Origin: Nitrosopumilus sp.
GTDB lineage: Archaea; Thermoproteota; Nitrososphaeria; Nitrososphaerales; Nitrosopumilaceae
Reading direction: 5' to 3'
Assembly: GCA_965206745.1 (NCBI GenBank)
Contig: OZ242220.1
Span: forward strand, 480,001-544,000
DNA: 64,000 nucleotides
A model generated the notes under the pieces. The model searched no databases. It was not told where the DNA came from and was given only the letters and a program-made list of their open reading frames with translations. Position 1 is the first letter of the stretch, and every line of letters starts with the position of its first letter. Below, piece after piece: positions 30,874-55,178 of the stretch. The translations under genes were made by a program, and so were the position numbers.

Positions 30874-33800
30874 TTTTTGGCTCCTTTATAATCGCAAAGA
30901 TTGAATTTATTGTTCCACCATCTGTAATATTAAATTGCTTTAATGTTTTTTTAACGGCAATGTACACTGTTTTTTCTTTGATCATTGTACCTCTCCAACT
31001 GTCTGCCTTGCTTGCAATAATTGCTTTATCAACTGCTAATGCAATTTCATCATTAGCATTCAAATTATCATAGAGTGCTTGTTTTCCCTTAGAGTCTATA
31101 CTAACAGGATATTTTATATCTCTAGACTGATTTGTTGCTTTCTTGCAAAGTTCTGTAATTTTATCCAGATATTGCTCGTACTTGATAATTTTCTTTTTTC
31201 TTTCAGCAATAAGTTCTTTGAGTAAGATAGACATTCTTTCATAATATTTTGGATTCGTAGGTCTCTCTTCAGTAATTAATCTTCTAACATTGTTTTCAAT
31301 TACTTCAGCAAGTGTGTTTTCGTTTTTACTGATATTTTTTGGAATTTTTGTAATTGTATAATTAATACCTTTTTTTACAATCATTTCAATAAGTGTAAGA
31401 TTATCAAATGCGGATATTTTTTCACTTTCGTTTGCACTAATGTATGTATCAAGTAGATGTCTCATTGCAGGTTCAAATGCCTTCAAATCAATATAATCTC
31501 CACTGGCAAGTTTGATTTCTTGTCTGACTCCAAGATAATGAGTAACCTCTTCTTTGATTTTTAATGCCTCTTTTTTGGTGTACCCTGCAACTGTCATTTC
31601 ATTTGCAAGATTAGAATATGCCCTTAATAATGATGAAGACATTTTGTATAGTGCAACTCTTCTTTGAGCAGTCTTCTTTAGATCAACTTCAGGTGCAAAA
31701 AAGTCAATATAATCGGGTGTTTCTTTTGGTGGTTTGACAGGATCACATAATGCACGAATGTTTTCAAGTTCTGTATCGAGTTTAGTCTTTGCAACTGATA
31801 TTCTATCTTTGAGTATTCCTTTGATATCTACTTTATCGTATCCGTCTAGTGCTTCTGAAGTATAGTCAGTAACTGATTTTTCTAAACTTTTGAAGAGATC
31901 CTTGTAGTCAATGATGTAACCATAGTCCTTGTCATCACCATCTAATCTGTTGACTCTACAAATTGCTTGGAATAGACCATGATCTTTCATTGATTTGTCA
32001 ATGTAAAGATATGTTGCTGGAGGTGCATCAAAACCTGTCAAAAGTTTGTCAACAACAATTAGCAGTTTCATTTGTTCAGGTTCTTTCACAAATTTTTCTT
32101 TGACTTCTCTTTCAAAATCTTTTATCTTTTTACCATCAAGCATTTTTTGATATATTTCATACTTGACAATGTTATCAGTATCTTCATCAAGACTGGTTGT
32201 CTCACCTTTGATAGAACTGATATGTGGATTGTAAGAAGTAATAATTGCACATTTTTTTAATTTATTTTTTTGAAATATTTCATAATATTTGCATGCCTCG
32301 TAAATACTACCAGCAATCAATAATGCGTTACCTTTTCCTGTTAAAAGTCTAGGTTTTGTTTCTAGATCCAGTATAATGTCTGCCACAATTTTTTCTAGTC
32401 TAGACTGTGAACTTAGAATTTTTTGCATTGTTGCCCATTTTTCCTTTAATCTTGTTACTGCGTAATCTGTCAATCCATTTGTCTTTGCTTCAAACCACTT
32501 GTCAACTTTGTCTTTTGATGTTACTTTTTGATCAATCTTCCGTGCTTCGATTTTAAGATCAAGAATTACCTTATCCTTTACAGCTTCGTCATACTTGTAT
32601 GTGTGAATATATCCGCCAAATACGTCCAGACTACTCTTCTTGTCTTTTTTCAGTAATGGAGTTCCAGTGAATCCCACAAACACTGAATTGGGAATGATTG
32701 ATTTCATTGCATCATGCATTTTTCCACTTTGTGTTCTGTGGCATTCATCAACAAAGACGTAAATGTCTCCCTTTACTTTGAAATCTTTTGGAATTTTAGA
32801 AAATATCTCAACAAAGTCATCTTCTTGCTCTGATTGGGTATGATCAAACTTGTGAATTAAAGAACAAATTAACCAAGGTTTTGCATTGTCTAGCTTTTTG
32901 ATAAGATCTCGTCCACTCTTTGTTCTATATATTGTCTCACCAATTCCATAGAATCTTTGTTCTATTTGATTATCTAGTTCATCACGATCGGTAATTATTA
33001 TCACTCGTGAGTCATTGATGTTTTCTCTAATCCACTTTGCAACCCAGATCATAGCGAGTGTCTTACCGCTACCTTGAGTATGCCATATAATTCCTCCTTC
33101 TCTTTTTTTGAGTTTTTTCTGAGTTTCTTTTACTGCAAAGTATTGATTGTGTCGCGCAATTTTCTTTTGACCTAGATCAAATACAATAAAGTCGTGAATT
33201 AGTTCCAAAAATCTCTCTTTTTTGCATAATACAGATAATCCACCATCAAGCTTATTTCTTATTCTAGTTTTTTCTTTCCAATTGAGATAGTATTTTTCAG
33301 AGGTCTCAATTACCCCGTATCTCAACCCTTCAGAATCATTTCCTGCCATGACAAGTTGAATCGTCCCAAAAAAATTACGAATAAATTCTGGTTTCTGGTT
33401 ATCAAGATTCTGTCTGATTCCCTCTGAAACTGAAACTTTACTTCTTTTTAACTCTAAAACTCCAAGAGCAATTCCATTTACATATAGTACAATATCGGGT
33501 CTCTTTCTGTTTTGACCTGCTACTGTAACTTCTTCAGCAATGTAAAAGTCATTTTTTAGAGGTTCTTTCCAGTTGATTAGTTGAATGGTTTGTTTCTTGT
33601 CTTTGATGTTTTCTTTTACTGAAATACCATATCGCAGAAAACTGTATATTTCTTTGTTGATGTGGTATAGACTTTTATTCTGATTTCTTGAAACCTTTTC
33701 AATATGACTGATTGTTTTTTTGATTAAAAAGTCATCATATTTTCCTTTGAGATATTTTGAAAGATATTCTTTTTCGATATTGGTGTTTTCTTCTCTTTTC

Positions 33801-33892
33801 TCCCAATTTCCAAGATATGTATACTTCAATTCTTTTTGAAAAAATTTGATTACTCTATCTTGAGTTTTTCTTTCAATCTGCCCTACTTTCAT
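30863..33892 (-). CDS. hsdR: type I restriction enzyme R subunit (locus 1)
   Basis: RPDIVLYVNGIALGVLELK nuclease motif, HTQGSGKT, DECHR, GFTGTP, LTGFDAP. Confidence 0.95.
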   Translation of the reverse strand: MKVGQIERKTQDRVIKFFQKELKYTYLGNWEKREENTNIEKEYLSKYLKGKYDDFLIKKTISHIEKVSRNQNKSLYHINKEIYSFLRYGISVKENIKDKKQTIQLINWKEPLKNDFYIAEEVTVAGQNRKRPDIVLYVNGIALGVLELKRSKVSVSEGIRQNLDNQKPEFIRNFFGTIQLVMAGNDSEGLRYGVIETSEKYYLNWKEKTRIRNKLDGGLSVLCKKERFLELIHDFIVFDLGQKKIARHNQYFAVKETQKKLKKREGGIIWHTQGSGKTLAMIWVAKWIRENINDSRVIIITDRDELDNQIEQRFYGIGETIYRTKSGRDLIKKLDNAKPWLICSLIHKFDHTQSEQEDDFVEIFSKIPKDFKVKGDIYVFVDECHRTQSGKMHDAMKSIIPNSVFVGFTGTPLLKKDKKSSLDVFGGYIHTYKYDEAVKDKVILDLKIEARKIDQKVTSKDKVDKWFEAKTNGLTDYAVTRLKEKWATMQKILSSQSRLEKIVADIILDLETKPRLLTGKGNALLIAGSIYEACKYYEIFQKNKLKKCAIITSYNPHISSIKGETTSLDEDTDNIVKYEIYQKMLDGKKIKDFEREVKEKFVKEPEQMKLLIVVDKLLTGFDAPPATYLYIDKSMKDHGLFQAICRVNRLDGDDKDYGYIIDYKDLFKSLEKSVTDYTSEALDGYDKVDIKGILKDRISVAKTKLDTELENIRALCDPVKPPKETPDYIDFFAPEVDLKKTAQRRVALYKMSSSLLRAYSNLANEMTVAGYTKKEALKIKEEVTHYLGVRQEIKLASGDYIDLKAFEPAMRHLLDTYISANESEKISAFDNLTLIEMIVKKGINYTITKIPKNISKNENTLAEVIENNVRRLITEERPTNPKYYERMSILLKELIAERKKKIIKYEQYLDKITELCKKATNQSRDIKYPVSIDSKGKQALYDNLNANDEIALAVDKAIIASKADSWRGTMIKEKTVYIAVKKTLKQFNITDGGTINSIFAIIKEPKNGY

Positions 33893-35088
33893 TTCAATCT
33901 AATTTCCCCTGTTAGTAATTTTTGCATCATTCCTTGTTTTATGTTGATGTATTTGTCTCGTTGTTTTTCTAGTTGATTAATTTCTAATTTCATATCAGAA
34001 AAAATTTTCATAATAGAATTTTGTTCATTGATTTTTGGAATTTTTAATTCTAAAAACTGATATTCTGATAACCAGTATCTTTTATGATCTCCTACGACAA
34101 AATCAATTATTTGCATCATTTCAAAAATAAATTCTAAATTTACTTTAGTATTTTTCTTCTTTAATATTTTCATTGCAGAAGATTTGACTTTGAAAGGAAA
34201 AGTTACAAATTTTGTATCCGTAGTAAAATCATCAAAAATTATTACTGGAATATCTTGAAAAATACTACTTTGTTCGTGGGTATATCCCAAAACAAAAGTT
34301 TTTCCTGCGGTTAAAACAGGAATAGAAAAAGCATCATTGTAGTTTGTATCCCTTATCAAATATTTTGTAGGTTGCTCATAATCCAATAATTCTCCAAATT
34401 TTTTAGTGTCCCATTCTCCACTAAACCCTTCTAATCTTTTCCTTCCTGTTAAAAATTCCTGTATTATTCCTTGTTTGATATTTTTTAACTTTGTGATTAG
34501 GCAGTCTAATTGTTTGATTAGTTTATCTGTATCTGATAATGATATTACAATTTTTTTTTGTTCGGTAATATCAGGAATTACAAAAGAAAAATTTACAAAA
34601 TCTTTTTGATAGAGATGAGTTATAGTTGAACCTGCAGTAAGTTTGACTAAAAAATTTTTAAAATAATTTGATAGAAAAAGATAATATAAAAATGAAGATA
34701 AATAACTATTATTTTTAGAATGGATTACAAATATTCCAGTATTTAATGTGGTGGGAAGCGACAAGGAATCTACATAAGCAATTTTTCCAATAGTTCCATC
34801 TTTTGTTACTAGTATATCTCCAATTTTTAGTTGAATATTTCTATCCTGTTCAAATCTTTTTTTGTCAACATAAACACATGTGTCCCAACTAATCTTTCCA
34901 TTTTTAAAATCTGTTCCTGTAACAAGATAGAACTTTCCATGCATTTTATATTCTGCAGTTGTTAGTCCTTGCCATCCTATTCTAGCTTTTAAAGTTGAAT
35001 CATCTAAAATATTTCCTATTTTCCAATCTTCAGGAATTGGTCCAAGTTCTGTTTGTTTGAAACCTTTCTTGATCTTTTGTTCTACCAT
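33889..35088 (-). CDS. hsdS: type I restriction enzyme S subunit (locus 1)
   Basis: IPEDW, EQKKI, KQGIIQEFLTG and KQGMMQKLLTG conserved regions flanking two TRDs. Confidence 0.93.
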   Translation of the reverse strand: MVEQKIKKGFKQTELGPIPEDWKIGNILDDSTLKARIGWQGLTTAEYKMHGKFYLVTGTDFKNGKISWDTCVYVDKKRFEQDRNIQLKIGDILVTKDGTIGKIAYVDSLSLPTTLNTGIFVIHSKNNSYLSSFLYYLFLSNYFKNFLVKLTAGSTITHLYQKDFVNFSFVIPDITEQKKIVISLSDTDKLIKQLDCLITKLKNIKQGIIQEFLTGRKRLEGFSGEWDTKKFGELLDYEQPTKYLIRDTNYNDAFSIPVLTAGKTFVLGYTHEQSSIFQDIPVIIFDDFTTDTKFVTFPFKVKSSAMKILKKKNTKVNLEFIFEMMQIIDFVVGDHKRYWLSEYQFLELKIPKINEQNSIMKIFSDMKLEINQLEKQRDKYINIKQGMMQKLLTGEIRLK

Positions 35089-37484
35089 CTGAATCCCATC
35101 TGCTCCAAATGCTGATCAACTTTTACTGATAATGTTTTCACATCCTCATTTAATTCAGGTAATCTTATCTCATATCTTTCTGCAAGCTCTTTTATTCTTC
35201 CAATTAATGTATGGGAAATATATTCAATTTCTTCATCGATTGAATGATTTATTGAGGCTAGCCACTTATCCTGAATGATAATTTCCTTTATCTCTGGTTC
35301 GTTTAGTTGTTGATATCTCTCTAGCACATCTTTGTTTAGTTTTGATTCTGCTTCTTTGATATGTTTTTTTAGAATTTTTTCTTGTTCTGTTAGTTTTTGA
35401 TATTCGATTAATATTTTTAATTCATCGAAAAATTCATGATCGTTTTCTATCTCTTTGATTCTTTTTGGAATATCTTTTTTGTTTATTTTTTTATCATTTC
35501 TGACATCAATAAACAGATCCTCTTCACCTTGATTATCATCCATTTCCTGCATTTGTCGTTTAATATCGTTCAATTTTTTCTCTAATTCTTCAATTTGATT
35601 TTTTTCTTTTAGAAAATATTTGTCAATTACAACATCTTTTGGAATTAACTCACTATCCCAGTTTATTACCTTGTCTTTTTTATCTTTGATTTCATATATT
35701 ACAACATTCCACCCATTCATTGAAATAAGATATACATCATCCTGCATAGTTTCTTCCCAATATGTCATTAATTTTTGATAGATATTATACTCGTCAATAA
35801 GATCATCAATTTTTGAGAATTTTTCTAGTATGTCTTCAGAAATTATTGAGATAAACTCTTTTGGTTTGGAGCCTATATCCATCTCAATAAATAGAGAATA
35901 ATTGTTTACCTTCCAAGATTCAAATGATTTTTTGAATATTTCTAAGAATTTCTTAAACTCTGTATGTTCAAAGATTGTTGATTTGATTTCTGACTTGTCA
36001 ATATTGAGTTTTAGATATCCTTTTCTGAGTGTGGAGAAGAGTAATTTTCTAATATTTGGATAGACTTTCCAATATTTCTCAAGATCATCAATATCTTTTC
36101 TTGGGATTCCTCCTTTAAGATGTCCTTCGATATCTTGAATGTCTTCTTTTTCTTCGTTGTCAATATATCTGGGAATATTTAGATTATAATCATTTTTCTC
36201 ATCACAAATTTCAGAAATTGGAACTAGTCTTGAGAATTTTGGAATCTCTAGTTGTTTTGTAAATGCATCAACTATCTTGCGAATATTCTTTGCTTGCAAT
36301 CTGTTTTTATTTCCATCCTTGACAAATCCTTCCTTCGCATTAATCATAAAAATACCTTTTCTGCTCTGGGCATTTTCTTTATCTAAAACTATGATCGATG
36401 CAGGAATGCTAGTTCCATAAAACAGATTAGGCGGTAATCCGATTATTCCTTTGATAAATCCTCGATTGATTATGTTCTTTCTAATTTCTGCCTCCACATT
36501 TCCTCTAAATAATACGCCATGGGGTAGAATGATTGCACCCTTGCCAGTACTCTTTAGAGATTTTAAGACGTGTAATAGAAATGCATAATCTCCATTTTTC
36601 TTTGGAGGAATTCCATATTCAACAAATCTATCAAATTCATCATCAGTTTCGTTTATTCCATTGCTCCAAGATTTAAAAGAGAAAGGAGGATTTGAGACTA
36701 TCAAATTAAAAGTCTTGAGTTTGCTATTTTTTTTGAATAATGGATTTGCTATAGTGTTTCCTTGTTGAATATCTGCATCAATATTATTATGTATCCACAT
36801 GTTCATCATTGCCATTGCTTTTGTTGCAACATCGTTTTCTTGTCCGTAAATTGTAATTCCTTTTGGTGTTTCATGGGCTACTTTGAGAAGTAAAGAACCA
36901 GATCCTGCTGTGGGATCATATACAGTTTGATCTTTTCTTTTTATATTACTTGCACCAATAACTTTGGCAATTATTTGAGATACCTCAGAAGGAGTATAGA
37001 ACTGGCCTTTTGCTTTTCCAGATTCTGTTGCAAATTTTCTCATTAAATATTCATATGCGTCACCAAGCAAGTCATCTCCATCAGCCCTGTTTTTATTAAA
37101 ATTTAATAATTTACTTTGAAAAATAGATATAAGATTTGTAAGCTTGTCTACTTTTTCCTTTCCGGAACCAAGTTTGTCTGAATCATCAAAGTCTGCCTCA
37201 TCAATTATTCCACTTAGATCATTTTCTTCTGCAAGTTTTTTAATAATTTTATTCATTCCTTCACCAATTCCAGGTTTGCCCTTGAGTGCAATCATATCAT
37301 CAAAACCTCCACCTTTCGAAATAGTGATGGCAACATCTTTTTGGTTCTTGTACTTGTCAGAGATATATTTTACAAATAGAATTGATAGAATGTAATCTTT
37401 GTATTGAGAAGGATCCATACCTCCTCTAAATTCATCACAACTCTGCCAAAGTTGACTGTAAATTTCACTTTTTTTGATTGCCAT
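35082..37484 (-). CDS. hsdM: type I restriction enzyme M subunit (locus 1)
   Basis: GQFYTP, YDPTAGSGSLL, SNPPFS, GVLFRG. Confidence 0.95.
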   Translation of the reverse strand: MAIKKSEIYSQLWQSCDEFRGGMDPSQYKDYILSILFVKYISDKYKNQKDVAITISKGGGFDDMIALKGKPGIGEGMNKIIKKLAEENDLSGIIDEADFDDSDKLGSGKEKVDKLTNLISIFQSKLLNFNKNRADGDDLLGDAYEYLMRKFATESGKAKGQFYTPSEVSQIIAKVIGASNIKRKDQTVYDPTAGSGSLLLKVAHETPKGITIYGQENDVATKAMAMMNMWIHNNIDADIQQGNTIANPLFKKNSKLKTFNLIVSNPPFSFKSWSNGINETDDEFDRFVEYGIPPKKNGDYAFLLHVLKSLKSTGKGAIILPHGVLFRGNVEAEIRKNIINRGFIKGIIGLPPNLFYGTSIPASIIVLDKENAQSRKGIFMINAKEGFVKDGNKNRLQAKNIRKIVDAFTKQLEIPKFSRLVPISEICDEKNDYNLNIPRYIDNEEKEDIQDIEGHLKGGIPRKDIDDLEKYWKVYPNIRKLLFSTLRKGYLKLNIDKSEIKSTIFEHTEFKKFLEIFKKSFESWKVNNYSLFIEMDIGSKPKEFISIISEDILEKFSKIDDLIDEYNIYQKLMTYWEETMQDDVYLISMNGWNVVIYEIKDKKDKVINWDSELIPKDVVIDKYFLKEKNQIEELEKKLNDIKRQMQEMDDNQGEEDLFIDVRNDKKINKKDIPKRIKEIENDHEFFDELKILIEYQKLTEQEKILKKHIKEAESKLNKDVLERYQQLNEPEIKEIIIQDKWLASINHSIDEEIEYISHTLIGRIKELAERYEIRLPELNEDVKTLSVKVDQHLEQMGFRW

Positions 37485-37489
37485 TTAGA

Positions 37490-38431
37490 TCACTTTTGCT
37501 TTTTACTCTGATATATTTTTTCAATCAAAGGAATTGCTTTTGCAATGTCGTCAAAATTTTTTATTGAAGAGCGAAAATTTCCTATTCCATGATGCCCAAT
37601 GTTTGAAACATCTTTTACAAACTTGGAAGTTTCAAGTAGAGTCATGTCACTTGTGGAATAATTGAGAGTAATTTTGGTTTTCAGTGCTTCTAGTGTACAT
37701 ATTGAAGAACCACCATCTCGTAGATAGTAACCACCATAAATTTTCCTTTGTTTAAACTCTACATCTTCAAATATTTTTTCAATTGTTTTCTTTAACTCAC
37801 CCCACAATTTTTTTATCTCGTCAGTAGGATGCTGATTATGATATTTTCCTGTAAGGTATTCCTCCTCAGTGTATTCTGATAGTCTAATTCTTACTTTAGT
37901 TGATTTTGGAGAATTTGGACTTTGAATTTGAGAATCTCCCATTCGGTTTAGAGTAATTATGTTGTCTTGATATTTTTTTATCTCATAGAGCTCAATAGGC
38001 AGTCCTTGAAAACCACTTGCTCTTTTTTGATATTTTGTGTATTCTTGTGAAATGAAAATTACACGTGTTTCATCCCAGTTGATATCCTTCACATCTGATG
38101 TTTTGTTCATTTTCTTGTTATAGAGCAGAACAAGGTTTTCTTTTCTCTCATGTAGTAATTGATAGTAACTTACCCCTTGATCAATTAGAGAGTAATTTTT
38201 AATTTTTTTGTATTCTATTATGACAAATGATTTTTTTTCAGAATCAAATGCTATAGTGTCAGGTCTTAGATCCTTTATCTGAAATTCAGTCTCAATAAAC
38301 TCTAATTCTGGAAATATTGAATCTAGGTTTTTTTCAACCATGTTCTGAATTATTTCTTCCAAATCAAATGCCTCTTGATGACTTTCTACTAGATTGTTCT
38401 TTTTTGATTGAAAAATTCTCATCAGAATCAA
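37490..38431 (-). CDS. NucS/DUF91-like PD-(D/E)XK nuclease with C-terminal DUF5655-like domain
   Basis: E..IQ..LEFIETEF..RPDTIA..VIIEYK..IDQGVSYY. The C-terminal DVSNIGHHGIG motif resembles DUF5655. Confidence 0.7.
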   Translation of the reverse strand: MILMRIFQSKKNNLVESHQEAFDLEEIIQNMVEKNLDSIFPELEFIETEFQIKDLRPDTIAFDSEKKSFVIIEYKKIKNYSLIDQGVSYYQLLHERKENLVLLYNKKMNKTSDVKDINWDETRVIFISQEYTKYQKRASGFQGLPIELYEIKKYQDNIITLNRMGDSQIQSPNSPKSTKVRIRLSEYTEEEYLTGKYHNQHPTDEIKKLWGELKKTIEKIFEDVEFKQRKIYGGYYLRDGGSSICTLEALKTKITLNYSTSDMTLLETSKFVKDVSNIGHHGIGNFRSSIKNFDDIAKAIPLIEKIYQSKKQK

Positions 38432-42255: not shown

Positions 42256-42391
42256 ATGATGGTATTTTTTAATATCTTATTAAATTTTTAGTAGAAAAAA
42301 ATCACAATTGAAAAATATGATCAGATAAAGGATGATTCAAACAATGTTGCTTTTTTCAAAGTGTATTAAGGGTATAACATTCAATAAAAGA

Positions 42392-42931
42392 ATGTCACTT
42401 TCAAGTTCAAAACTTAGATCAGAGATAAAAATTCAAAACACTGTAACCACGGCAGATCTCAAGCAGGAGATAAATCTGACATCTTTTAACAAACACAAAC
42501 ATCTTAGCTCAAATCTAGAACTATACAGATGTGGCTATGTTAAAGATGACACCATGACAGGCAGAGTTACCGTCTTTAGAACCGGAAAACTCATCTCAGT
42601 TGGAACAAAAAGTCCAGGGCAGGCAAAAAAAGAGCTAGCCAAAGCATGTAAGATACTACAGAAATACAAGATTGCAAAACCTGTTAAAATTACTCCACAA
42701 ACAAGAAACATTGTATCAAGATTTGACATGAAGAAAAAATTACCAATAGAAAAACTTGCAAGAACACTGCCAAAATCCATGTATGAGCCAGAACAGTTTC
42801 CTGGACTGATTTATAGAATTCAGGGCAGCTGTGTTGCCCTGATATTTGCATCAGGAAAAGGAGTCATTGCAGGAGCAAAGTCAATAGAGGAAACAAATGC
42901 GGCATTCTTTGATGTAAAATCACGGCTCTAG
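42392..42931 (+). CDS. tbp: divergent TATA-box-binding protein paralogue 1
   Basis: Two TBP repeats: IQNTVTTADL..VTVFRTGKLISVGTKS and RNIVSRFD..YEPEQFPGLIYR..LIFASGKGVIAGAKS. Likely start ATG at 42392. Confidence 0.85.
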   Translation: MSLSSSKLRSEIKIQNTVTTADLKQEINLTSFNKHKHLSSNLELYRCGYVKDDTMTGRVTVFRTGKLISVGTKSPGQAKKELAKACKILQKYKIAKPVKITPQTRNIVSRFDMKKKLPIEKLARTLPKSMYEPEQFPGLIYRIQGSCVALIFASGKGVIAGAKSIEETNAAFFDVKSRL

Positions 42932-43011
42932 CATAAAATACAAAAATAAAACAACTAGAACCATATCCTAAAACTATGGCACAAAAATAGAAATTATGCA
43001 ACAAATATCCG

Positions 43012-43935
43012 TTGACTACCTATCCTACATCTAGAGCGACTATCTTGTTTGAGGAGTCAATAAAGTCAAAGTACACCAAAAAGAACTACACGTCACACCT
43101 TAACCAATTCCTGAGATTTGCAGATATGCATTCTGAGAACCAACTGCTGAAAATACCTCATATGGAACTGCAGTACAAGCTAGAAAATTACCTAATAGAG
43201 TTAAAACATACCACAAACCCCAATTCAATATCGTCAAGGTTTCAGGGGATAAAGCACTTTTGTATTATGAACGAGATCAACCTCAACTGGAATATCATAC
43301 ACAAGATGTTCCCGCAAAGACAGAAAACCCAGAGTCTGCGTTCGTACACTTGCAAGGAAATCAGAGAGTTGTTATCTTGTGCAAAAAGTCTGCGTGATAC
43401 AGCCTTGATTCATTTTTTGGCATCGACTGGTGCAAGAATAGGAGTGTTTGATAATGTACTGTCAATGAAACATCTCAGAAAAATATCACACGGTTGCAAT
43501 GCCGTCAAGGTCTATGCAGGACAAGTTGAGGAATATTGGGTTTTTCTTACACCTCAGGCCTCAAGGGCATTGAATGTTTATCACAAATATCGTAAGCAGC
43601 ATGGTGAGATGTTTTGTGAAGACACTCCAATCTTTGCTATAATGAGTGCATCCCATGGACAGCTGGGATGGAGTGGTGCAAGATCTGCAGTATACAGAAC
43701 AGTCTCAAGAAGCAACATAAGACAAGATAAACAAGATAGTAGATATGATGTGCAGGTGGACCACGGATTCAGAAAGAGATTCAACACTATTCTAAAACTG
43801 GATAATTCTGTAAACTATAACATTGCCGAAAAGCTAATGGGACACAAGAATGGACTTGATGGTGTATATCTGACTCCTACTCTAGATGAACTCTTTGTGG
43901 AATTTAGAAAAGTGATGCATAAAATTGAGGTTTAA
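43012..43935 (+). CDS. tyrosine recombinase/integrase
   Basis: Catalytic residues present: STGARIG (R), HGFR (HxxR), LMGH (H), DGVY (Y). Confidence 0.92.
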   Translation: MTTYPTSRATILFEESIKSKYTKKNYTSHLNQFLRFADMHSENQLLKIPHMELQYKLENYLIELKHTTNPNSISSRFQGIKHFCIMNEINLNWNIIHKMFPQRQKTQSLRSYTCKEIRELLSCAKSLRDTALIHFLASTGARIGVFDNVLSMKHLRKISHGCNAVKVYAGQVEEYWVFLTPQASRALNVYHKYRKQHGEMFCEDTPIFAIMSASHGQLGWSGARSAVYRTVSRSNIRQDKQDSRYDVQVDHGFRKRFNTILKLDNSVNYNIAEKLMGHKNGLDGVYLTPTLDELFVEFRKVMHKIEV

Positions 43936-45041: not shown

Positions 45042-46340
45042 CTATGTCTCTATAACTTGACCGAACTGTAACTTTATAGTTACAGTTAATCTCATGCATA
45101 AAATTATGATGATTATGAATTGTATACAATTTATTGCGTCAACTCCTGACAGGATTGACGCAATTTTTTGTTGTTCTGGTAGATATTTTGGAACGAGTAT
45201 TAACATTTTTTTAATTTCAGTCTTACTAATTTCTAGAAAAGTTGTTCCATATGATAATCGGATTAGGGTATTTTTATTGTTACATAATAAATAAAAAATG
45301 AATAAATTATCAAATTTATTATTACAAATTATATTTTGAAAACCTTGATTGGTAGATATTGGGTTGGCAGTTATTGCACATTCTCCAATAGTTGCTCTAG
45401 AAGTGAGTAAAATTGTACCTTTTGGTAATAATTTAGCTGAACTATCTTTTAATCCTTTTTCTGTAATCTTTCTTTCAGTATTATTAATGTAAGTTGTTTG
45501 TAACTTTGTAATATCTGTTGGAACCGCCCACAATATATTCCCATTCCAGTATTCTTTATTTTTAGAATTTGGTGTGCCACCACTGACTATTTCTCCTATA
45601 TTATCAAGCTTTGTTATTTTCCATTCTTCTGGAATTTCAATCTCTTTTCTAAATAATCCTTTAACTTTCTTAAACTTTGTATGTCTAATTCCTCTAGCCA
45701 ATAATTCTTGCATCAATCCTTTCTTTAATCGTCCAGCTTTATCCACAACTTGTTGTGTATTTTGTATCAATGCGTCAACATTAGAAAGAATTGATGCAAT
45801 TTTTTGTTGTTCGTTGATAAGAGGTAATAAAATTGGCATAATGGAATATTGTTTTGCATTAACATTGGGTTGAACTCCCCATGTTTGTATCGATAATAAC
45901 CATGCCCAATAAAATTTTGAATGTGTTAAATAAAAAAGAAATTTAGAATCAAGATTTTTATTGTCAGGTTTAAAACGAATTAGATATCCTGCAAATGCAC
46001 ATGTTTCATTACTTTCTTGATGAAGATATGTTTTGCCAACTGTTGCGCCAGTTCTTGCAAATAGAATATCTCCTTCATATAAAATATAATCTTGAGCATC
46101 TTCTTCGGATATTGATTTCCATTCTGAATATCTTAATGTTCCATTATCATTTAGATCTGTGATACGTATGTATCGAGGTAATTTTAGATTTTTTTCTATT
46201 GCTGACACAGATACACCATATTCAGCTTTACCAATACAATTTTCAGATAATGTTGTTTTCTTCCATTCTTCTGGAATCTCCATCACTTTTCCAAAAATCC
46301 ATTTTAGTAACTTGTAACCTTGTCTTGGTTTTCTAGCCAT
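45042..46340 (-). CDS. hsdS: hsdS-A: type I S subunit with two TRDs but no C-terminal conserved helix (probable silent cassette)
   Basis: MARKPRQGYK..IPEEW TRD1, central EQQKIASILSNVDA..KKGLMQELL, then TRD2. After EQQKIASILSGVDA the frame runs into unrelated sequence (INCIQFIIIIIL..). Confidence 0.88.
   Translation of the reverse strand: MARKPRQGYKLLKWIFGKVMEIPEEWKKTTLSENCIGKAEYGVSVSAIEKNLKLPRYIRITDLNDNGTLRYSEWKSISEEDAQDYILYEGDILFARTGATVGKTYLHQESNETCAFAGYLIRFKPDNKNLDSKFLFYLTHSKFYWAWLLSIQTWGVQPNVNAKQYSIMPILLPLINEQQKIASILSNVDALIQNTQQVVDKAGRLKKGLMQELLARGIRHTKFKKVKGLFRKEIEIPEEWKITKLDNIGEIVSGGTPNSKNKEYWNGNILWAVPTDITKLQTTYINNTERKITEKGLKDSSAKLLPKGTILLTSRATIGECAITANPISTNQGFQNIICNNKFDNLFIFYLLCNNKNTLIRLSYGTTFLEISKTEIKKMLILVPKYLPEQQKIASILSGVDAINCIQFIIIIILCMRLTVTIKLQFGQVIET
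45135..45167 (-). repeat. IR2-left: distal inverted repeat, pairs with 56921..56953
   Basis: Reverse complement AAAATTGCGTCAATCCTGTCAGGAGTTGACGCA is 32/33 identical to 56921..56953. The site is itself a near-perfect palindrome (45133..45164). Confidence 0.9.
45699..45812 (-). repeat. IR1-left: central inverted repeat, pairs with 56288..56401
   Basis: 114 bp; its reverse complement is identical to 56288..56401 on base-by-base comparison. Confidence 0.95.
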
Positions 46341-46347
46341 AATTGAT

Positions 46348-46890
46348 TTATTTAAGCAACCCATTTAATCTTTGAATTATCTCAAAAGAGGCAGTGTTTA
46401 ACTCATTTGCAGATTTTGCACCTATGATTACAATTTTTCCTGATGCAAAAACAAGACAGCTACAACTATCCAATCCTTTTACTATCATACCTGGAAATGT
46501 TTCAGGATCATACACTACACCATCCATCTTTGTTGATATGATGTCAATCGGTATTGCTTTACCTGTTGTAACTGTAGCTACAATATTTCTAATCTTTGTT
46601 GATAATGTTACATTTTTTATCATGTTGTGTTCTAACAGATGGAATTTAGATTGGTTTAACTGCTCTTTTGCCCTTTTAATTGACTTTGCGCCAACTGATA
46701 TCATCTTACCACTTAGAAAAATAGTAACACGACCATCCATTTCAGGTATTTTGACATATCCGCATCTACCACCATATATTGCCTCATCATAAATACAACA
46801 AGGGATTTTTACAAATTTTAATATGTCTACTTTTTGCTTTAAATCTGCAGTACATACAACATTGTGAATTTTGGGTTTTAGATTCAACAA
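46348..46890 (-). CDS. tbp: divergent TATA-box-binding protein paralogue 2
   Basis: IHNVVCTADL..VTIFLSGKMISVGAKS and IRNIVATV..YDPETFPGMIVK..LVFASGKIVIIGAKS. Likely TTG start at 46890 or 46887. Ends 7 bp before the hsdS-A start. Confidence 0.85.
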   Translation of the reverse strand: MLNLKPKIHNVVCTADLKQKVDILKFVKIPCCIYDEAIYGGRCGYVKIPEMDGRVTIFLSGKMISVGAKSIKRAKEQLNQSKFHLLEHNMIKNVTLSTKIRNIVATVTTGKAIPIDIISTKMDGVVYDPETFPGMIVKGLDSCSCLVFASGKIVIIGAKSANELNTASFEIIQRLNGLLK

Positions 46891-46954
46891 AACAGAACAC
46901 TTTGCGGCTCTTAAATATCCCTCATTTTTGATAAAATATTTAGATGATGTAAAT
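46891..46954. promoter_or_regulatory. putative compact divergent promoter region between tbp2/hsdS-A and hsdR
   Basis: 64-bp AT-rich gap between head-to-head starts, with TATA-like CTTAAATA and TTGATAAAATATTTA. Inferred from position only. Confidence 0.4.
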
Positions 46955-49900
46955 ATGTCAAAACTATTGGATTTTAATGTAGGTACAGGTGATGAGGCAG
47001 AACAATCAGAGATCCCAGCACTAGAACAGCTAGTCAAAATGGGATATCAATATATTTCAAAAAATGACCTAAAAAGAGAACGAAGAAAAACAACCGAAGT
47101 CTTATTGTATGACAGATTAAATAATGCAATTAAAAGAATCAATCCTCAACTAGATTCAGATGGAATCGATGATGCAGTAAATCAGATCAAAGAAGATACA
47201 TTTCCATTTACATATGATACAATGAATACTAATGAAAAGATTCGAGCTAAATTAATTGGATTGTCTCAAACAGGAGGACTGGAACCAATAACAGTTGATC
47301 AACATGATAAAAACAGGACCATAAAAAAGACTGTAAAACTTTTTGATTTTGATGATATAGATAACAATGATTTTATTGTTACAAATCAATTTGAATTGCA
47401 GGGACTCAAAAATCTAATATATCCCGACATTGTTTTATTTGTAAATGGCATTCCATTAGTTATCATAGAATGCAAATCACCATTTAGAAGAAATTGGTTA
47501 GTTGATGCAGTAGAAAAAGAAAATTTCAATAAATATCGTTCTAGAGGAGCAGGTTATGAAAAACTAATGTTCTACAATCACATTCTAGTTGCAACTTGTG
47601 GCACACAAGCAAGACATGGAACAATATCGTCAGATTTAAATCATTTTCAAAATAGCAGATGGTCAAGCGCATATCCATTAACTGAAAAAGAGATTGAAGA
47701 AAAATTTGGAAAAAACAGAGAACAAGAGATTTTAATTGCAGGAATGCTTGACAAATCCCATCTTTTGGATTTACTAAAAAATTATGTACTTTATCAAACA
47801 GTTAACAACAAGCGAATCAAAATTATTGCAAAACATCAACAATATAGAGCAGTCAGAAAATGTGTTGAAAAAATTAAAACTGCAAACACCAGACAAGGAG
47901 GAATTATCTGGCACACTCAGGGTTCAGGAAAATCCTTTACAATGCTGTGGGTTGCAAGGCAGGCAATAGAATATGATAATTTGCCTCTAGTCATAGTCAC
48001 AGACAGGCGTCAATTAGATAAACAAATCCACACTACTTTTACACAAGTTGGATTCCCAAATCCAATAAAGGCATACAAATCAGCACAACTTGCAGATTTT
48101 ATAAAATCACCAAAGGGTAAAACCATGATGACTACAATTCAAAAATTTGAGGAAATTAGTGAATCTACAGATGAGAAAATTATCGTTCTAGTGGATGAGG
48201 CACATCGGTCACAGTTTGGAATCGATGCAGGTGCAATGGATAAAGCAATTCCAAATGGGATTTACTTTGGGTTTTCTGGAACTCCAATTGATAACAAAGA
48301 TAAATCCGTATATCGAGTATTTGGTGATCTAATAGACAAATATGGATTTGAAGAATCAAAAGCAGATGGTGCTACCATCCCGATAAGATATGTTGGACGA
48401 TTGCCAAATCTCTTTGTCGAAGATGATGAATCTATCGATATCTTATTTGATAGAATTATTGGTTCTGAACCAAACATGACGCCAGAACTAAAAGAACAGC
48501 TAAAAAAAGAATATGTGAATAAAGATAAAATTATACAAGCTCCTCAAAGGATTAAAAAAATTGCATTGGATATTGTAGAGCATTACACTAATAACATTCA
48601 AGATAATGGCTACAAGGCAATGATTGTGGCATCATCACAAGAATCTGCAGTACTATACAAAGAAGAATTAGATCGCCTCAATGCTCCGCCATCAAAAATC
48701 ATCATGGATCAAAGGATTGGCAAGACAGGAAAAGATGGAACAAGTTGGGATGTCCATTATCTAACCGATTCTCAAAAAAGACAAATAGAAGATTCTTTCA
48801 AAAATCCAGATAATGAGATTAAAATTTTGATAGTTGTTGATATGTTGCTAGTTGGATTTGATGCACCGATAGTCAAAGTGATGTATCTTGATAAATCCCT
48901 CAAAGAGCATGCACTACTTCAGGCAATTGCACGTGTAAACAGGTCATATGATGAATGGAAAGAAGAGGGATTGATTGTAGATTATTATGGCATAACTAAG
49001 AATATTCAAAAAGCATTAGAAACTTTTGATCCAAAAGATATCAAAGGAGCTTGGGAATCTGATGACTCGCAACTAGATATACTAAAAATATATCATACAC
49101 AAACAATGAATTATCTCAAAGGATTAGATAAAAACAAACCGGAACAAATCATAGAAGCATTTGAATCCATTGATAAAAGAGAGGCATTTGAGGATTATTT
49201 TAAAAAATTTTCCAAAGTTCTAAATTCACAATTATATAAAACGGAATCATCTCAATACATTTCTGATTTTAAGGAATTGAGTAAGATCAGAGCATTGTTG
49301 AGAAACTGGTATGAGAATCCAAAAAATTCTACTCGAAAATATGCTGTGATGATTCAGAAATTAATTGATGATGCAATAGGAGCAACTGGTGTTTCTGAAC
49401 TTGTAAAACCAATGGAAATAACATATGATAATTTCTTAGCATATGTCTTAAAATTTAAATCTTCAAGAGCTAGAACTGCACTTATTAAAAATAAAGCAGA
49501 GCAAGTGATTATGGAAAATTACTCCCATAATCCAGTATATTATGAAAAATTGCGGGAATTACTTAAACGATTAATCTCAGAAGAAAAACAAAGAAGAGAA
49601 GAGAATGCGGAGTATGTTGATTCAACCATGGAGGAAAAATTCAAGGAAATTTATAATAAAGCATTAGATATAGAAAAAGAAAGAAAAAATCTTGGGTTTG
49701 ATAGAGACATAGAATTTTCAATATATGGATTAATTAAAGAATATAAAAAAGATAAGAATAAATCAATTGAAATTACAAAGAGATTATCTGAAAAAATATT
49801 ACCTGAGACAGAAATTATTGAATGGCATCATAAATTAAGCATCAAACGAAAGATTGAAAAAATCACATATGATATTCTAGATTCATTTGGTATTGTGGAT

Positions 49901-49960
49901 GAAGATATATCAAAATTATCGGAAAAGATTTTAACATTGCTCAATTGTGATAACTTGTGA
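46955..49960 (+). CDS. hsdR: type I restriction enzyme R subunit (locus 2)
   Basis: YPDIVLFVNGIPLVIIECK, HTQGSGKS, DEAHRSQ, GFSGTP, VGFDAP, QAIARVNR. Likely start ATG at 46955 (MSKLLDF). Confidence 0.95.
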   Translation: MSKLLDFNVGTGDEAEQSEIPALEQLVKMGYQYISKNDLKRERRKTTEVLLYDRLNNAIKRINPQLDSDGIDDAVNQIKEDTFPFTYDTMNTNEKIRAKLIGLSQTGGLEPITVDQHDKNRTIKKTVKLFDFDDIDNNDFIVTNQFELQGLKNLIYPDIVLFVNGIPLVIIECKSPFRRNWLVDAVEKENFNKYRSRGAGYEKLMFYNHILVATCGTQARHGTISSDLNHFQNSRWSSAYPLTEKEIEEKFGKNREQEILIAGMLDKSHLLDLLKNYVLYQTVNNKRIKIIAKHQQYRAVRKCVEKIKTANTRQGGIIWHTQGSGKSFTMLWVARQAIEYDNLPLVIVTDRRQLDKQIHTTFTQVGFPNPIKAYKSAQLADFIKSPKGKTMMTTIQKFEEISESTDEKIIVLVDEAHRSQFGIDAGAMDKAIPNGIYFGFSGTPIDNKDKSVYRVFGDLIDKYGFEESKADGATIPIRYVGRLPNLFVEDDESIDILFDRIIGSEPNMTPELKEQLKKEYVNKDKIIQAPQRIKKIALDIVEHYTNNIQDNGYKAMIVASSQESAVLYKEELDRLNAPPSKIIMDQRIGKTGKDGTSWDVHYLTDSQKRQIEDSFKNPDNEIKILIVVDMLLVGFDAPIVKVMYLDKSLKEHALLQAIARVNRSYDEWKEEGLIVDYYGITKNIQKALETFDPKDIKGAWESDDSQLDILKIYHTQTMNYLKGLDKNKPEQIIEAFESIDKREAFEDYFKKFSKVLNSQLYKTESSQYISDFKELSKIRALLRNWYENPKNSTRKYAVMIQKLIDDAIGATGVSELVKPMEITYDNFLAYVLKFKSSRARTALIKNKAEQVIMENYSHNPVYYEKLRELLKRLISEEKQRREENAEYVDSTMEEKFKEIYNKALDIEKERKNLGFDRDIEFSIYGLIKEYKKDKNKSIEITKRLSEKILPETEIIEWHHKLSIKRKIEKITYDILDSFGIVDEDISKLSEKILTLLNCDNL

Positions 49961-50652
49961 TTAAAAAAATAAAATATCTTGATTCTGTGATAGAATATGA
50001 CTTAATCAAAAGTAAACGTAGAAAGACATCACAAATCACAATTACACCTGATAAAATAACGATAAGAACACCAGATACGAAATCTTCAGCAGATGTAGAA
50101 AAAATTGTACAAAAAAAGGCACAATGGATATTTAAAAAACAATTACATTTTATTGGACAAAAAAAACCAGTTTTTTCATTAAAATCGCTTTTACTAATTT
50201 ACGGCAAAAATTACAAAATCAAGATTATTCCCAACAATACGGAAAAAACATGTCTGAATGGAGATGTTATAGAATTTCACATATCACAAAAGAAATACAA
50301 TACAAAGCAGATCAAAGCACAGTATGATGCATATTTGAGGAAAAAAGCGTACGTATTGTTTCCAAAATGGACCAAAGTATTAGCAGAAAAAATTGATGTG
50401 CATCCAACCAAAATCAACATCAAAGAGCTCCGAGGTAGATGGGGAAGTGCTACTGCTACAGGTGCGATCAATCTTAATTCCAATCTGATAAAGGCTCCAA
50501 AAAAGATCATCAGATATGTTATTTTTCATGAATTATGTCATTTTAAAATCAAAGAACATTCACATCATTTTTGGAATCTAATGGGACAACATATGCCTGA
50601 ATATAAGGAATCAATAAAATGGTTAGAAGCAAATGGAATCAAAATCAGTTAA
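49957..50652 (+). CDS. M48/YgjP (DUF45) family metallopeptidase-like protein
   Basis: RGRWGSA, YVIFHELCH..HSHHFW. Overlaps the hsdR stop. Confidence 0.88.
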   Translation: MIKKIKYLDSVIEYDLIKSKRRKTSQITITPDKITIRTPDTKSSADVEKIVQKKAQWIFKKQLHFIGQKKPVFSLKSLLLIYGKNYKIKIIPNNTEKTCLNGDVIEFHISQKKYNTKQIKAQYDAYLRKKAYVLFPKWTKVLAEKIDVHPTKINIKELRGRWGSATATGAINLNSNLIKAPKKIIRYVIFHELCHFKIKEHSHHFWNLMGQHMPEYKESIKWLEANGIKIS

Positions 50653-50689
50653 GATGTATTTTTGATGCTAAAATAGTATGATATCGTCT

Positions 50690-50810
50690 ATTCAAAAACC
50701 AAATACAAAAATGTATTCCACAAAGAAAAAGATAACAAGGTTGTTCAGAAAATGCTTACAATGTACATGGTATTGAAAGAAAAAAATGACATATGAAAAG
50801 ACAGATCATA
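50690..50810 (+). mobile_element. IS630-like N-terminal fragment
   Basis: KEKDNKVVQKMLTMYMVLKEK, similar to the fragments at about 24.3 and 54.5 kb. Limits approximate. Confidence 0.4.
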
Positions 50811-50939
50811 TACTTATGCATTCTTCTGATGGAGTATCCATATGGGTACAAAGAGGATCGTCTTTATGCCTTCGTAGAGGAGAGATCTTCCATGAATTAA
50901 TAGGTCTCCATAGATATCATATACAAAACTTAACAAGAT

Positions 50940-51830
50940 AATGCACCCTAACGAATTTTTGTTCATCAGTTTATCACACATCAAATCTTGACGGAAATAA
51001 ATATGCGTGATTATTTTTACCAGTAATCCAAACACATGTTTTTTAATCATCAGTTAATCATATTGTTAGTTATTGATAATATGAGTTAAAAAAATTACAG
51101 TTCTTTTATTCAATGGCTTCAAGCTACCTGTCAGATTACAAACGATCTTGACCTGCAAATCATATCTCATCACACCACACTACAAAAGACAGCGGCAAGA
51201 ATAAATGAAAAGATACTATACATGGTAATAAAACGATTCATCAATCATGTATATGCAAGAGAAATATTTGGAATTGATATATTTGGAATTGAGACAGGCC
51301 GTGCAATAAAACATTATTCATGGAGGGTTCAAAATCAGATATATATTTATCAAGGCATATCTCTATGTTCTGACATATCAACCCAGATTGTCTGCACTAC
51401 AATTGTAGATAATCACCAGTATCTCATGACGTCAAACATGTTTCTTCATCGCTATCAAAAATACATCCTCACAAATTAGTAAAGCCAATGATACCTGACA
51501 AGGGAATAGGATTCAGAATTAATCCACAAATTGATACTCAGTAACAGCATACATTCTGTAATTCCTGTAAGAAGCAGGACAAACAGGGTCAGCAAGGTAA
51601 AAAAGACATGCAGAAAAGAGATGTATCGAAAATTTGAAAAAGAGACATATTTTCAGAGAAATTAAAAAGAGTTGTCTTTTCGGTAATAAAGAGAATGTTT
51701 GATCAAAGATTCTTTCATGTAATGAATCTTAGATAGTAAAAGAAACACCACATAAAATATTGGTCTATAACTGTCACAGAATATACCTGATCGTAAATTT
51801 AGAGATGATTTCTATATTGTCGATCTAACT
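50940..51830 (+). mobile_element. heavily degraded IS5-family (DDE_Tnp_1-like) transposase
   Basis: Frameshifted fragments in the expected order: DKG.DSELIH, VIPVR, KFEKETYFQRN, VFSVIKRMF, LVYNCHR. Confidence 0.65.
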
Positions 51831-51866
51831 AAATCTATATTACTTGAAGACTATCATAGTTATTAG

Positions 51867-53375: not shown

Positions 53376-53599
53376 TCAATGATATCTGCTCTATAAATTA
53401 GGAAATATTTTGTACAATTTCAGATAAGACATCAAATGATATCTTTGTTGCATGTAATTGTGTAGTTAATCCTACAACGTTTTTCCATAGGATTCATTTG
53501 CAGGTAAATCAGTTGACGTATGTTGTGGTTTGTTACAGGAAAGAATATTGAGCTGTTGTGTTATGTGTCGTATTTCAGTTGTTATAATCCATGCATCCA

Positions 53600-54580: not shown

Positions 54581-55178
54581 TTTTCCTTGTCACATATTTT
54601 TTTAAATTTTTTATGTTTGGGTTATTCATGTCATACATGAACTGAGATGATCCTTATACTCAGAGTTTTACAAAATTTGATACATGAATGAGTTTTTTCT
54701 CGTCAGTCTAGTCTGATTCTGCGAATCACACTAGCAAAAATCTAACATATGATAAGAGGTAATTTTATATGGAAATATTTTTTCTACTCTGCAAACTGTA
54801 AATATATACGGATGACAATGAAGGCATGTTACAAGAATTCCTGAAGTACAAATTATTCATTTACTTGTTAATCAAACACATAACAACACCAACAGAATCA
54901 AGATCATACCAACTATGTCTAGATGATTTGATGGTTTTTTAAATTATCATGCATAGTTTTTTTAGACATCCTGTCTCCTTTCTTCCATTTCATTTGCATT
55001 CTCGCTCGTATTTTCTTGAATAGTCTTTTGATCTCTGGTATTGCGTAAATTCTTTAGATTTCATTGGTATTTTTGAGGCATATCGTTTAAAAGTTTTTTG
55101 ATTTGATGTGCTACTGATCTATAAGCTTTTTGTTATTTTTAGAGGTGAGTTTATGGGCAACATTGATTTCTTCTCATT

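Follow-up and report, generated by a model that had tools for sequence, protein, structure and literature searches.

The DNA analysed here, called the window throughout, is a stretch of 64,000 nucleotides (G000:C1:480001-544000; contig OZ242220.1) from a 1.86-Mb Nitrosopumilus genome of 41% GC. Its low-GC part, at about 30000-58000 (GC of about 0.27-0.36 against 0.42-0.48 in the flanks), forms an island that contains two type I restriction-modification (R-M) sets, a third, inverted hsdS gene, two YgjP-like genes, a gene encoding a TIR protein, a PADLOC PDC-S18 candidate and a HicB-like open reading frame (ORF). Within it lies the gene under study, which encodes a diverged paralogue of TBP (TATA-box-binding protein) that we named rmTBP-1 and that represents a family of TBPs tightly linked to R-M genes; a second member, rmTBP-2, is encoded in the same island. 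An earlier note on this DNA had described rmTBP-1 as a two-repeat TBP at 42392-42931, with NLELYRCGYVK at residues 41-51 and a canonical repeat 2 with its acidic stirrup, placed inside a defence island and 80 nt upstream of a recombinase gene on the same strand. Each element of this description was recovered: the Pfam TBP family PF00352 is matched in two stretches, with which the AF2 model agrees, the codons at 42512-42544 encode the repeat-1 segment, residues 131-142 read YEPEQFPGLIYR and carry the same motif as the canonical TBPs of the genome, the recombinase ORF starts from a TTG at 43012, and the low-GC stretch houses the two type I systems. In what follows, L numbers denote loci and G numbers genomes.

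Gene structure and predicted fold of rmTBP-1

The rmTBP-1 ORF is intact from the ATG at 42392 to the stop codon at 42929-42931 (+) and encodes 179 amino acids. The longest ORF at this position begins at 42332, the database gene call has 195 residues, and upstream ATGs are found at 42332 and 42344; we preferred the start at 42392 because homologues are about 179 residues long and because a TATA-like box lies 21-29 nt upstream of it. A similar A/T box is present about 21-31 nt before the ATG in most of 32 orthologue upstream regions, as judged by eye and uncounted. The position of the box points to a promoter of its own and to a leaderless or near-leaderless mRNA. Two runs that cover nearly the whole window also contain a minor contig, in which the rmTBP-1 gene (at 42509-42613) differs by about 12 substitutions and a single-base deletion and a downstream ORF of 277 residues (at 44183-44248) by 9 substitutions; this contig probably stems from a co-occurring related strain or element.

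The match to PF00352 has an E-value of 1.6e-35 (121.2 bits, cut-off 22.9). In the AF2 model (pLDDT 94.9, pTM 0.86) the pattern S1-H1-S2-S3-S4-S5-H2 occurs twice, so that the predicted structure has the ten-stranded sheet, the four helices and the two pseudo-symmetric halves of the TBP saddle. A Foldseek comparison of this model with the PDB placed TBP chains at all of the top 44 ranks. The TM values to solved TBPs range from 0.80 to 0.87, with 0.87 for Sulfolobus acidocaldarius TBP (1mp9_A), and the rmsd to the DNA-bound TBP of Arabidopsis thaliana (1qna_A) is 1.9 Å.

Read from the sequence, the two repeats keep a constant offset of 90 residues (N16/N106, F62/F152). Each repeat retains the Asn-x-Val motif of its S1, and F62, F136 and F152 are likewise kept, as is YEPEQFPG in the C-terminal stirrup; among 102 family sequences N16, V18, F62, N106, V108, F136 and F152 are invariant or nearly so, and the stirrup Y131-E-P-E-Q-F-P-G is also conserved (in the closer clade of 76 sequences, E132, P133 and F136 are each found in 76/76, and position 134 has E in 67 sequences and D in 9). 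We take N16/N106 and the Val and Phe positions to correspond to the DNA face, the DNA-kinking Phe and the central Asn/Thr contacts of canonical repeats, and residues 131-142 to be the region that contacts transcription factor B (TFB) in solved TBP-TFB complexes; at the level of the sequence motif, this stirrup has the acidic Y-E-P-E-x-F-P-G of a TFB-binding one. The stirrup and strand S3 of repeat 1 (residues 47-50 for S3 in the model) are remodelled, and from the 90-residue register it follows that the repeat-1 equivalent of F136 is R46, beside the invariant Y45. Each S3-S4 loop is one residue shorter, and the acidic C-terminal tail found on the genome's canonical TBPs is absent. DNA binding and TFB recruitment have probably been retained by rmTBP-1, and in our reading its N-terminal half would have gained a new, strongly constrained surface.

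A separate TBP clade linked to restriction-modification genes

Whether an 'RCGYVK' clade exists among archaeal TBPs, a question raised in the earlier note, was addressed with two phylogenies, both of which place rmTBP-1 outside the housekeeping TBPs. In FastTree (167 rows) a branch with a support of 99 splits all 77 canonical control TBPs and the genome's four other TBP-like ORFs from both island types. In IQ-TREE (64 rows) the rmTBP-1 and rmTBP-2 types form one clade of 22 rows with 100% support, separated by a long branch from 42 canonical rows, and the canonical TBPs of Nitrososphaeria, including three from this genome, make up a clade of their own (35 rows, 99). Lying outside that 99% clade and patchy in its occurrence, rmTBP-1 is not a housekeeping TBP of Nitrososphaeria.

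All 102 aligned family members share the signature Y-x-C-G-Y-[VI]-K...M-x-G-[RK]-V-T-x-F, which is followed by GK[LM]ISVG; T20, Y45, C47, Y49, K51, M55, G57, F62, G65, K66, I68, S69, G71, N106, Y131, P133, F136 and G161 are all invariant in this alignment. The string 'RCGYVK' was dropped as the defining motif because its R is variable (in the closer clade of 76, residue 46 is R in 47 sequences, with A found in 23, H in 3 and Q in 1), so that C47, Y49 and K51 remain from the motif first noticed and R46 does not.

A word-index search with rmTBP-1 gave at least 120 relatives of 66-100% identity, 68 of those listed having RCG[YF]V, and the corresponding search with rmTBP-2 yielded 223 proteins (E up to 1e-3). 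Among 1.84 billion cluster representatives, a profile search retrieved 281 proteins at E up to 1e-30; of the best 150 of these, 6 have the strict motif, 13 the looser CGY..K..M.G[RK] and 56 both [CVAI][GA]Y.K and GK.IS.G, and 24 are plainly canonical. By these motif counts, the 'RCGYVK' clade is the core of a wider diverged subfamily, whose gene context is known from one member (L258, see below). The NCBIfam model NF001592 gives 103 bits for rmTBP-1 and 229-247 for the genome's canonical TBPs against a cut-off of 270, and does not discriminate in this lineage since the canonical proteins miss the cut-off too. Neither rmTBP-1 nor rmTBP-2 matches any family of PADLOC 2.0 or PHROGs v4, a protein atlas search returned generic TBP clusters only, and no fused form of the clade was found among 13 matches in longer proteins, all of at most 37% identity. 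A viral origin was considered and rejected: none of 66 pattern matches in IMG/VR viral contigs (aligned over the N-terminal half) was confirmed, and PHROGs gave no match.

The rmTBP-1 type (E up to 1e-40) occurs in 13 of 401 Nitrosopumilaceae species genomes, in 11 of the 246 of high quality and in 5 of 27 genera, and the rmTBP-2 type (at least 49% identity) in 8 of the 401. At the level of the class, the family profile matched 15/223 genomes within the family, 1/78 and 1/10 in two other families and none in the rest; a canonical TBP was matched in 40 of 41 relatives. The dN/dS ratio is 0.05-0.2 in 10 pairs of rmTBP-1 orthologues, dS being not computable in 3 more, which marks the intact copies, as far as codon comparison can tell, as being under purifying selection. 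Broken copies exist as well (L035, L164, L165, TBP fragments in L163, and G507).

Linkage to R-M genes was first assessed with the window's island proteins as blastp probes (E up to 1e-5) in 35 loci, 27 of them with at least 1.5 kb of flank. An hsd gene was found within 3 kb in 15 of the 27 family loci and in 0 of 77 canonical-TBP loci, the flanks of the latter being far longer (median 15.5 kb vs 3.8 kb). When all ORFs within 3 kb of the TBP gene were clustered in 50 loci, the recurrent neighbours were HsdS (23), HsdM (17), HsdR (12) and the recombinase (12), and this unbiased clustering gave no other family in more than 3 of the 50. These loci hold 54 family genes. For 32 of them an R-M gene is no more than 3 kb away, and 25 directly adjoin one (at most 500 nt away, with no intervening ORF of at least 100 residues). 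A lack of enrichment near defence or mobile genes, which the earlier note had considered damaging to its proposals, is not what these counts show (32/54 genes with an R-M neighbour, recombinase in 12/50 loci). R-M genes were detected with the window's own proteins and with Pfam on selected ORFs, many contigs are short, and kin are not independent; because several metagenome loci are near-duplicates (L113/L114; L123/L124/L125/L127; L129/L131; L135/L136; L139-L141), the independent cases are fewer than the counts.

Several types of R-M system are involved. Among the loci with no hsd match, Pfam identified Eco57I/MmeI-type type IIG enzymes in L115 and L178, a Res and N6_N4 methylase pair (type III) in L137 and a TaqI_C-domain protein in L138; EcoEI-type HsdR proteins were found in L162, L177, L180 and L128. 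The partner Hsd proteins are often only 24-36% identical to those of the window. Considering complete or long genome loci only, an R-M gene lies within 3 kb in 9 of 12 of the rmTBP-1 type (all except L033, L163 and L182) and in 6 of 8 of the rmTBP-2 type (all except L203 and L206). The TBP gene may stand within the hsd row itself, as in L034 (hsdS-TBP-hsdR-hsdM), L162 (hsdR-TBP-hsdS-recombinase) and L207 (hsdM-hsdS-TBP-hsdR), and it overlaps hsdS in the window and in L204. In L258 (G540:C8:8000-27999), from a 3.5-Mb genome of another family, a TBP with 'YGGRVGYIK' is encoded head-to-head with an hsdM-hsdS-hsdR-YgjP row in an island of 27-33% GC; its HsdR is 52% identical to that of the window, and the 64% identity of the HsdM proteins suggests that the whole module was transferred between families.

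The surrounding island and the basal factors of the genome

The features of the window are collected in Table 1. The protein rmTBP-2, which the earlier note had not picked up although it carries the same motif, is 43% identical to rmTBP-1 and belongs to the same 100%-supported clade. The 3' end of its gene overlaps the start of the adjoining hsdS by 17 nt, and on its other side the gene is divergent from hsdR, with 64 nt and back-to-back TATA-like boxes between the rmTBP-2 start and the probable hsdR start. The two hsdS genes of opposite orientation that surround the recombinase share inverted repeats, and the arrangement looks like a shufflon.

Table 1. Features of the rmTBP-1 gene and of its island, in window coordinates
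Feature	Position	Strand	Description and basis
First R-M block	30118..38431	-	YgjP-like, hsdR, hsdS, hsdM, PDC-S18 candidate; Pfam
PDC-S18 candidate defence gene	37490-38431	-	313 aa, beside hsdM; PADLOC E 1.1e-76
TATA-like box GTATTAAGG	42363..42371	+	21-29 nt before the rmTBP-1 ATG at 42392; sequence
rmTBP-1 (name coined here)	42392..42931	+	179 aa, two-repeat TBP paralogue; stop codon included
rmTBP-1 residues 41-51, NLELYRCGYVK	42512..42544	+	Remodelled repeat-1 stirrup and strand S3; signature Y45-x-C47-G48-Y49-V50-K51
rmTBP-1 residues 131-142, YEPEQFPGLIYR	42782..42817	+	Canonical repeat-2 stirrup
Tyrosine recombinase	43012..43935	+	80 nt 3' of rmTBP-1; Pfam Phage_integrase E 1e-5 and NCBIfam XerA-type E 1.2e-15, both below cut-off
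hsdS copy	45042..46364	-	Directly 3' of rmTBP-2; inverted relative to hsdS 55739-57052; Pfam Methylase_S E 3.8e-45
43-nt inverted repeat pair	45135-45177 and 56911-56953		91%; in both hsdS genes
263-nt inverted repeat	Arms 45550-45812 and 56288-56550		83% complementary; common to both hsdS genes
rmTBP-2	46348..46890	-	180 aa, YGGRCGYVK; Pfam TBP E 1.8e-30; gene call P0121
Type I R-M operon region	46871..57052	+	Pfam
hsdR	ORF from 46871, probable ATG 46955, to 49960	+	
YgjP-like	49957-50652	+	
hsdM	51867-53375	+	
TIR protein	55179-55742	+	Between hsdM and hsdS, overlapping the hsdS start by 4 nt; Pfam TIR_2 E 2.3e-18
hsdS	55739-57052	+	

Some neighbouring genes recur elsewhere. Homologues of the PDC-S18 candidate adjoin an rmTBP-2-type gene in L203 (35% identity) and lie near one in L204 (53%). 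Two ORFs between the first R-M block and rmTBP-1, of 207 residues (40572-41195, +) and 306 residues (41335-42255, -), have no family match and are found again beside rmTBP-1-type genes in L033 (55%), L164 (51%) and L177 (75% and 48%), possibly as additional cargo of the islands or of their defence genes. The HicB-like ORF (76 residues, 40256-40486, -) matches phrog_497 with an E-value of 1.6e-7. Between the recombinase and hsdS, the ORF of 277 residues (44045-44878, +) contains CxxC and His-rich motifs recalling an HNH nuclease and has no match in Pfam, NCBIfam, PADLOC or PHROGs. Downstream of the last hsdS, two tandem 54-nt copies, 83% identical (57495-57602, +), lie within a gene for an S17e-like ribosomal protein (57195-57680).

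The genome has six TBP-like genes: three canonical ones, the two island copies and one very weak candidate. The last (G000:C1:384808-385329, +; positions 1471-1989 of locus L011) encodes 173 residues with Pfam repeats of 27.8 and 21.2 bits and has a very long branch in the tree. Also outside the window, one of the canonical TBP genes (G000:C1:1237040-1237636) adjoins a TFB gene with TFIIB repeats at 1237647-1238189, which suggests a TFB-TBP gene pair at G000:C1:1237040-1238189 on the minus strand.

Possible roles of rmTBP and comparison with known systems

The best explanation for rmTBP is a free-standing and functional TBP from a diverged subfamily that is horizontally mobile and travels with R-M modules in Nitrosopumilaceae. 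As to its role, we give a probability of about one half to that of an alternative TBP, borne by the module, which would control how the neighbouring R-M genes are transcribed, through either activation or repression. Expressed from its own ordinary TATA promoter, rmTBP would bind and bend DNA through its largely intact saddle, would recruit a host TFB by the canonical C-terminal stirrup, and would in this way control the R-M genes next to it and, in the window, perhaps also the recombinase gene that follows after 80 nt. With its remodelled N-terminal half (Y-x-C-G-Y-V-K...M-x-G-R-V-T-x-F), it may alter promoter choice or polarity, or dock a partner. In function, such a protein would correspond in archaea to a sigma factor borne by a mobile element or to an R-M controller (C) protein, and its promiscuity among R-M types with no fixed protein partner fits a regulator rather than a subunit. 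Among the three roles put forward in the earlier note (an alternative basal factor for island promoters, a DNA-bending cofactor for inversion and a decoy for viral proteins that target TBP), the first is the best supported, although no target promoter was identified. The generalisation that R-M modules of ammonia-oxidising archaea carry a basal factor of their own, a diverged TBP gating the expression of type I, IIG and III systems, is held tentatively, at a little short of even odds. In a bolder variant, the new surface would dock the R-M enzymes, and DNA would be bent for restriction or methylation, not for transcription.

Several observations weigh against transcriptional control of the R-M genes. 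One of the four kink-Phe positions is lost in repeat 1 (R46, next to the invariant Y45) and hydrophobic residues (V70; V or A at 160) occupy both Thr positions of S5, for which reason TATA binding of the normal type is not assured. The island holds no TFB gene, all 6 of the genome being elsewhere, and inspection by eye of the window's own upstream regions, made without a statistical motif search, gave TATA-like boxes only, with no target promoter or distinctive motif. Among the 32 genes with an R-M neighbour, 20 are convergent with it, 10 are on the same strand and 2 are divergent; the commonest layout is thus tail-to-tail with the last R-M gene, which is unusual for a cis-linked regulator. 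In L113, L114, L117, L122, L131, L132, L143, L180 and L205 the tail-to-tail ORF ends are 0-8 nt apart or overlap, so that the transcripts must overlap in antisense; the layout, which neither transcriptional control nor any of the alternatives below explains, may add antisense or interference effects. A further 22 of the 54 family genes have no R-M gene within 3 kb, many of these being on short contigs; L206 has a housekeeping context (TIM, PolB) and L203 lies beside metabolic genes and the PDC-S18 homologue. Finally, a strong PF02384 match (E up to 1e-40) is present in 32 of 101 genomes of the genus, and of the 29 of these searched for the TBP only 7 carry it. Because most R-M-bearing genomes of the genus lack it, the TBP is an optional companion and the R-M systems work without it.

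The earlier note had also proposed a DNA-bending cofactor for inversion, by analogy with IHF/Fis. In this role the protein would be an architectural partner of the tyrosine recombinase and would bend the DNA at the sites where hsdS inverts, like IHF or Fis in bacteria. The rmTBP-1 gene lies directly upstream of the recombinase gene on the same strand, and with no T-run in the 80-nt gap the two may be co-transcribed; recombinases of 63-73% identity are encoded within 3 kb of family TBPs in L033, L034, L162, L163, L177, L202, L204 and L205, and the window's two inverted hsdS genes share repeats. We nevertheless consider this role very improbable. The recombinase subfamily (at least 59% identity) is found in 21 of 401 genomes (the overall recombinase tally of 64 takes in G132 and G293, on which no claim rests), and in 21 loci of the subfamily (54-73% identity, 1.5-kb flanks; L210-L229 among them) hsdS is present in 13, flanking both sides in several, and a HicB-like small ORF in 10, whereas a family TBP is present in 3. 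At the thresholds used, 11 of the 21 recombinase genomes have no family TBP, and conversely a recombinase is absent within 3 kb from 38 of the 50 TBP loci; type IIG and III systems, in which there is no hsdS to be shuffled, are accompanied by the TBP too. Across 42000-57300, no strand-changing joint was listed for the contigs and reads of 4 runs; contigs of two runs break at the hsdS repeats, and two small 'skip' joints have sides of only 20-23 letters and are uninterpretable. With 18 of 21 recombinase loci devoid of the TBP, we rejected an obligatory partnership. Since the recombinase is mostly found with hsdS and without the TBP, the two are separate satellites of R-M loci, and an obligatory cofactor relation between them is unlikely.

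If rmTBP is not a transcription factor, it could be a working part of the defence itself, a DNA-binding and DNA-bending module whose marking, sensing or blocking of DNA would serve the R-M enzymes or other effectors. TBP-domain proteins are reported in the TOTE and TALON systems (PMC12458937), 13 of the 54 genes lie 0-9 nt from an R-M ORF or overlap it on a stop-to-stop map, among them those that overlap hsdS in the window and in L204, and the most invariant region of the protein is the remodelled repeat-1 surface, a possible docking site; other neighbours of defence type occur too, such as a Schlafen/AlbA_2 protein and an MBL nuclease in L140, a PIN protein in L178 and the PDC-S18 homologue in L203. 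The partner systems are, however, complete and self-sufficient R-M systems of three types, and no partner family other than R-M is present in more than 3 of 50 loci. Of the TOTE parts, TPR is found in L163 only and OB nowhere, no PADLOC model matches rmTBP, and the conserved TFB-contact stirrup would be superfluous in a pure DNA sensor. A complex prediction for rmTBP-2 with the overlapping HsdS scored 0.00 against a mark of 0.32 and is evidence for neither side. On balance a role in the defence machinery seems unlikely to us. Still less probable is a passive part, either as a 'stealth' TBP that soaks up the TATA-like sites of DNA with 27-33% GC, comparable with plasmid-borne H-NS paralogues, or as a redundant, hitch-hiking paralogue. 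It would agree with islands that are strongly AT-rich relative to their genomes, with a rare and patchy gene (13/401 and 8/401 genomes), with the pseudogenised copies and with two members outside defence contexts (L206 and, largely, L203). It accounts poorly for strong purifying selection and for a novel motif that is invariant across clades only about 40% identical. The linkage, moreover, concerns the R-M genes as such: the TBP gene lies 0-500 nt from one of them in 25 cases, occasionally stands within the operon, and is found with R-M systems that have little sequence in common, and no other cargo of the islands recurs. What is left of our expectation goes to something else entirely.

To our knowledge, how archaeal defence systems are switched on and timed and how they are kept from killing a new host is essentially unknown, and we know of no established archaeal counterpart of the bacterial R-M controller proteins. 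A conserved, mobile TBP that tracks several R-M types is a concrete candidate for such control and, if the reading of rmTBP as a module-borne alternative TBP is right, would be a natural example of a basal factor specialised for a set of genes acquired by horizontal transfer. The protein also provides a TBP with a naturally re-engineered N-terminal half for studies of promoter recognition and polarity. The current annotation 'TATA-box-binding protein' hides these genes as markers of defence islands in Nitrosopumilaceae. A full-text literature search, covering main texts only and with most subscription journals outside its scope, found no paper on R-M-linked TBP paralogues in archaea; judging from gene context, the family described here would be specialised for, or at least bound to, R-M modules. 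Two other sources mention a TBP orthologous group unique to one sponge symbiont (PMC6697440) and a small genomic island in which a TBP gene accompanies inositol-phosphate genes (PMC7265257).

With canonical archaeal TBP (PF00352; 1mp9 from S. acidocaldarius, 1ais for the Pyrococcus woesei TBP-TFB-DNA complex), rmTBP shares the two-repeat saddle, the conserved Asn and Val of each S1, all but one of the four Phe positions, and YEPEQFPG as its C-terminal stirrup. It differs in its repeat-1 stirrup and S3 (Y-x-C-G-Y-V-K) and in its S5, GK[LM]ISVG in place of GKMVCTG; moreover, canonical TBP is universal and in this genome has an acidic C-terminal tail, whereas rmTBP is accessory, patchy and tail-less and forms a separate long-branch clade. 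Haloarchaea have paralogues of TBP and TFB, and in the eukaryotic TRF2/TBPL1 the DNA-binding face is altered and the TFB/TFIIB side kept; such paralogues are thought to serve a subset of promoters. In these respects rmTBP would resemble them, and it is distinguished by its thaumarchaeal lineage and its own signature motif; we know of no haloarchaeal or eukaryotic TBP paralogue in physical linkage with R-M genes.

Phase-variable type I R-M loci of bacteria, such as the hsd loci of pneumococci and mycoplasmas, have an adjacent tyrosine recombinase and inverted copies of hsdS. The window likewise has a recombinase between inverted hsdS genes with shared repeats, a likeness in gene layout; we know of no TBP-like accessory gene in the bacterial loci. 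Bacterial C proteins and the WYL-type regulators BrxR/CapW are small DNA-binding regulators encoded beside diverse R-M or defence genes, optional and carried by the module. In being small, optional, mobile with the module and found beside several types of system, rmTBP is like them; they have a helix-turn-helix (HTH) or WYL fold and act as operator-binding repressors or activators, whereas rmTBP has the TBP saddle and is mostly placed tail-to-tail. As C proteins are small HTH proteins that bind to a C-box lying upstream of the R gene as well as of their own, the analogy is one of role only.

TBP-fold proteins within defence or conflict gene neighbourhoods are also described in the bacterial TOTE (TPR, OB, TBP, Effector) and TALON conflict systems (PMC12458937). 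These are defined by TPR-OB/CSD and effector partners or by YprA-type helicase partners with a NERD nuclease, whereas only Hsd proteins and the recombinase recur in the 50 loci; rmTBP is thus set apart by its partners. From within the same phylum, TFIIB (TFB) homologues are described on thaumarchaeal integrative-conjugative elements, and type I R-M genes on cryptic integrated elements (PMC6563490); 'TBP' has no occurrence in the main text of that paper. The element-borne TFB is the other basal factor, is carried by conjugative elements and is encoded next to ParB. It shares with rmTBP the nature of a basal-factor paralogue on a mobile element, and it offers a precedent for a basal factor that travels with such an element.

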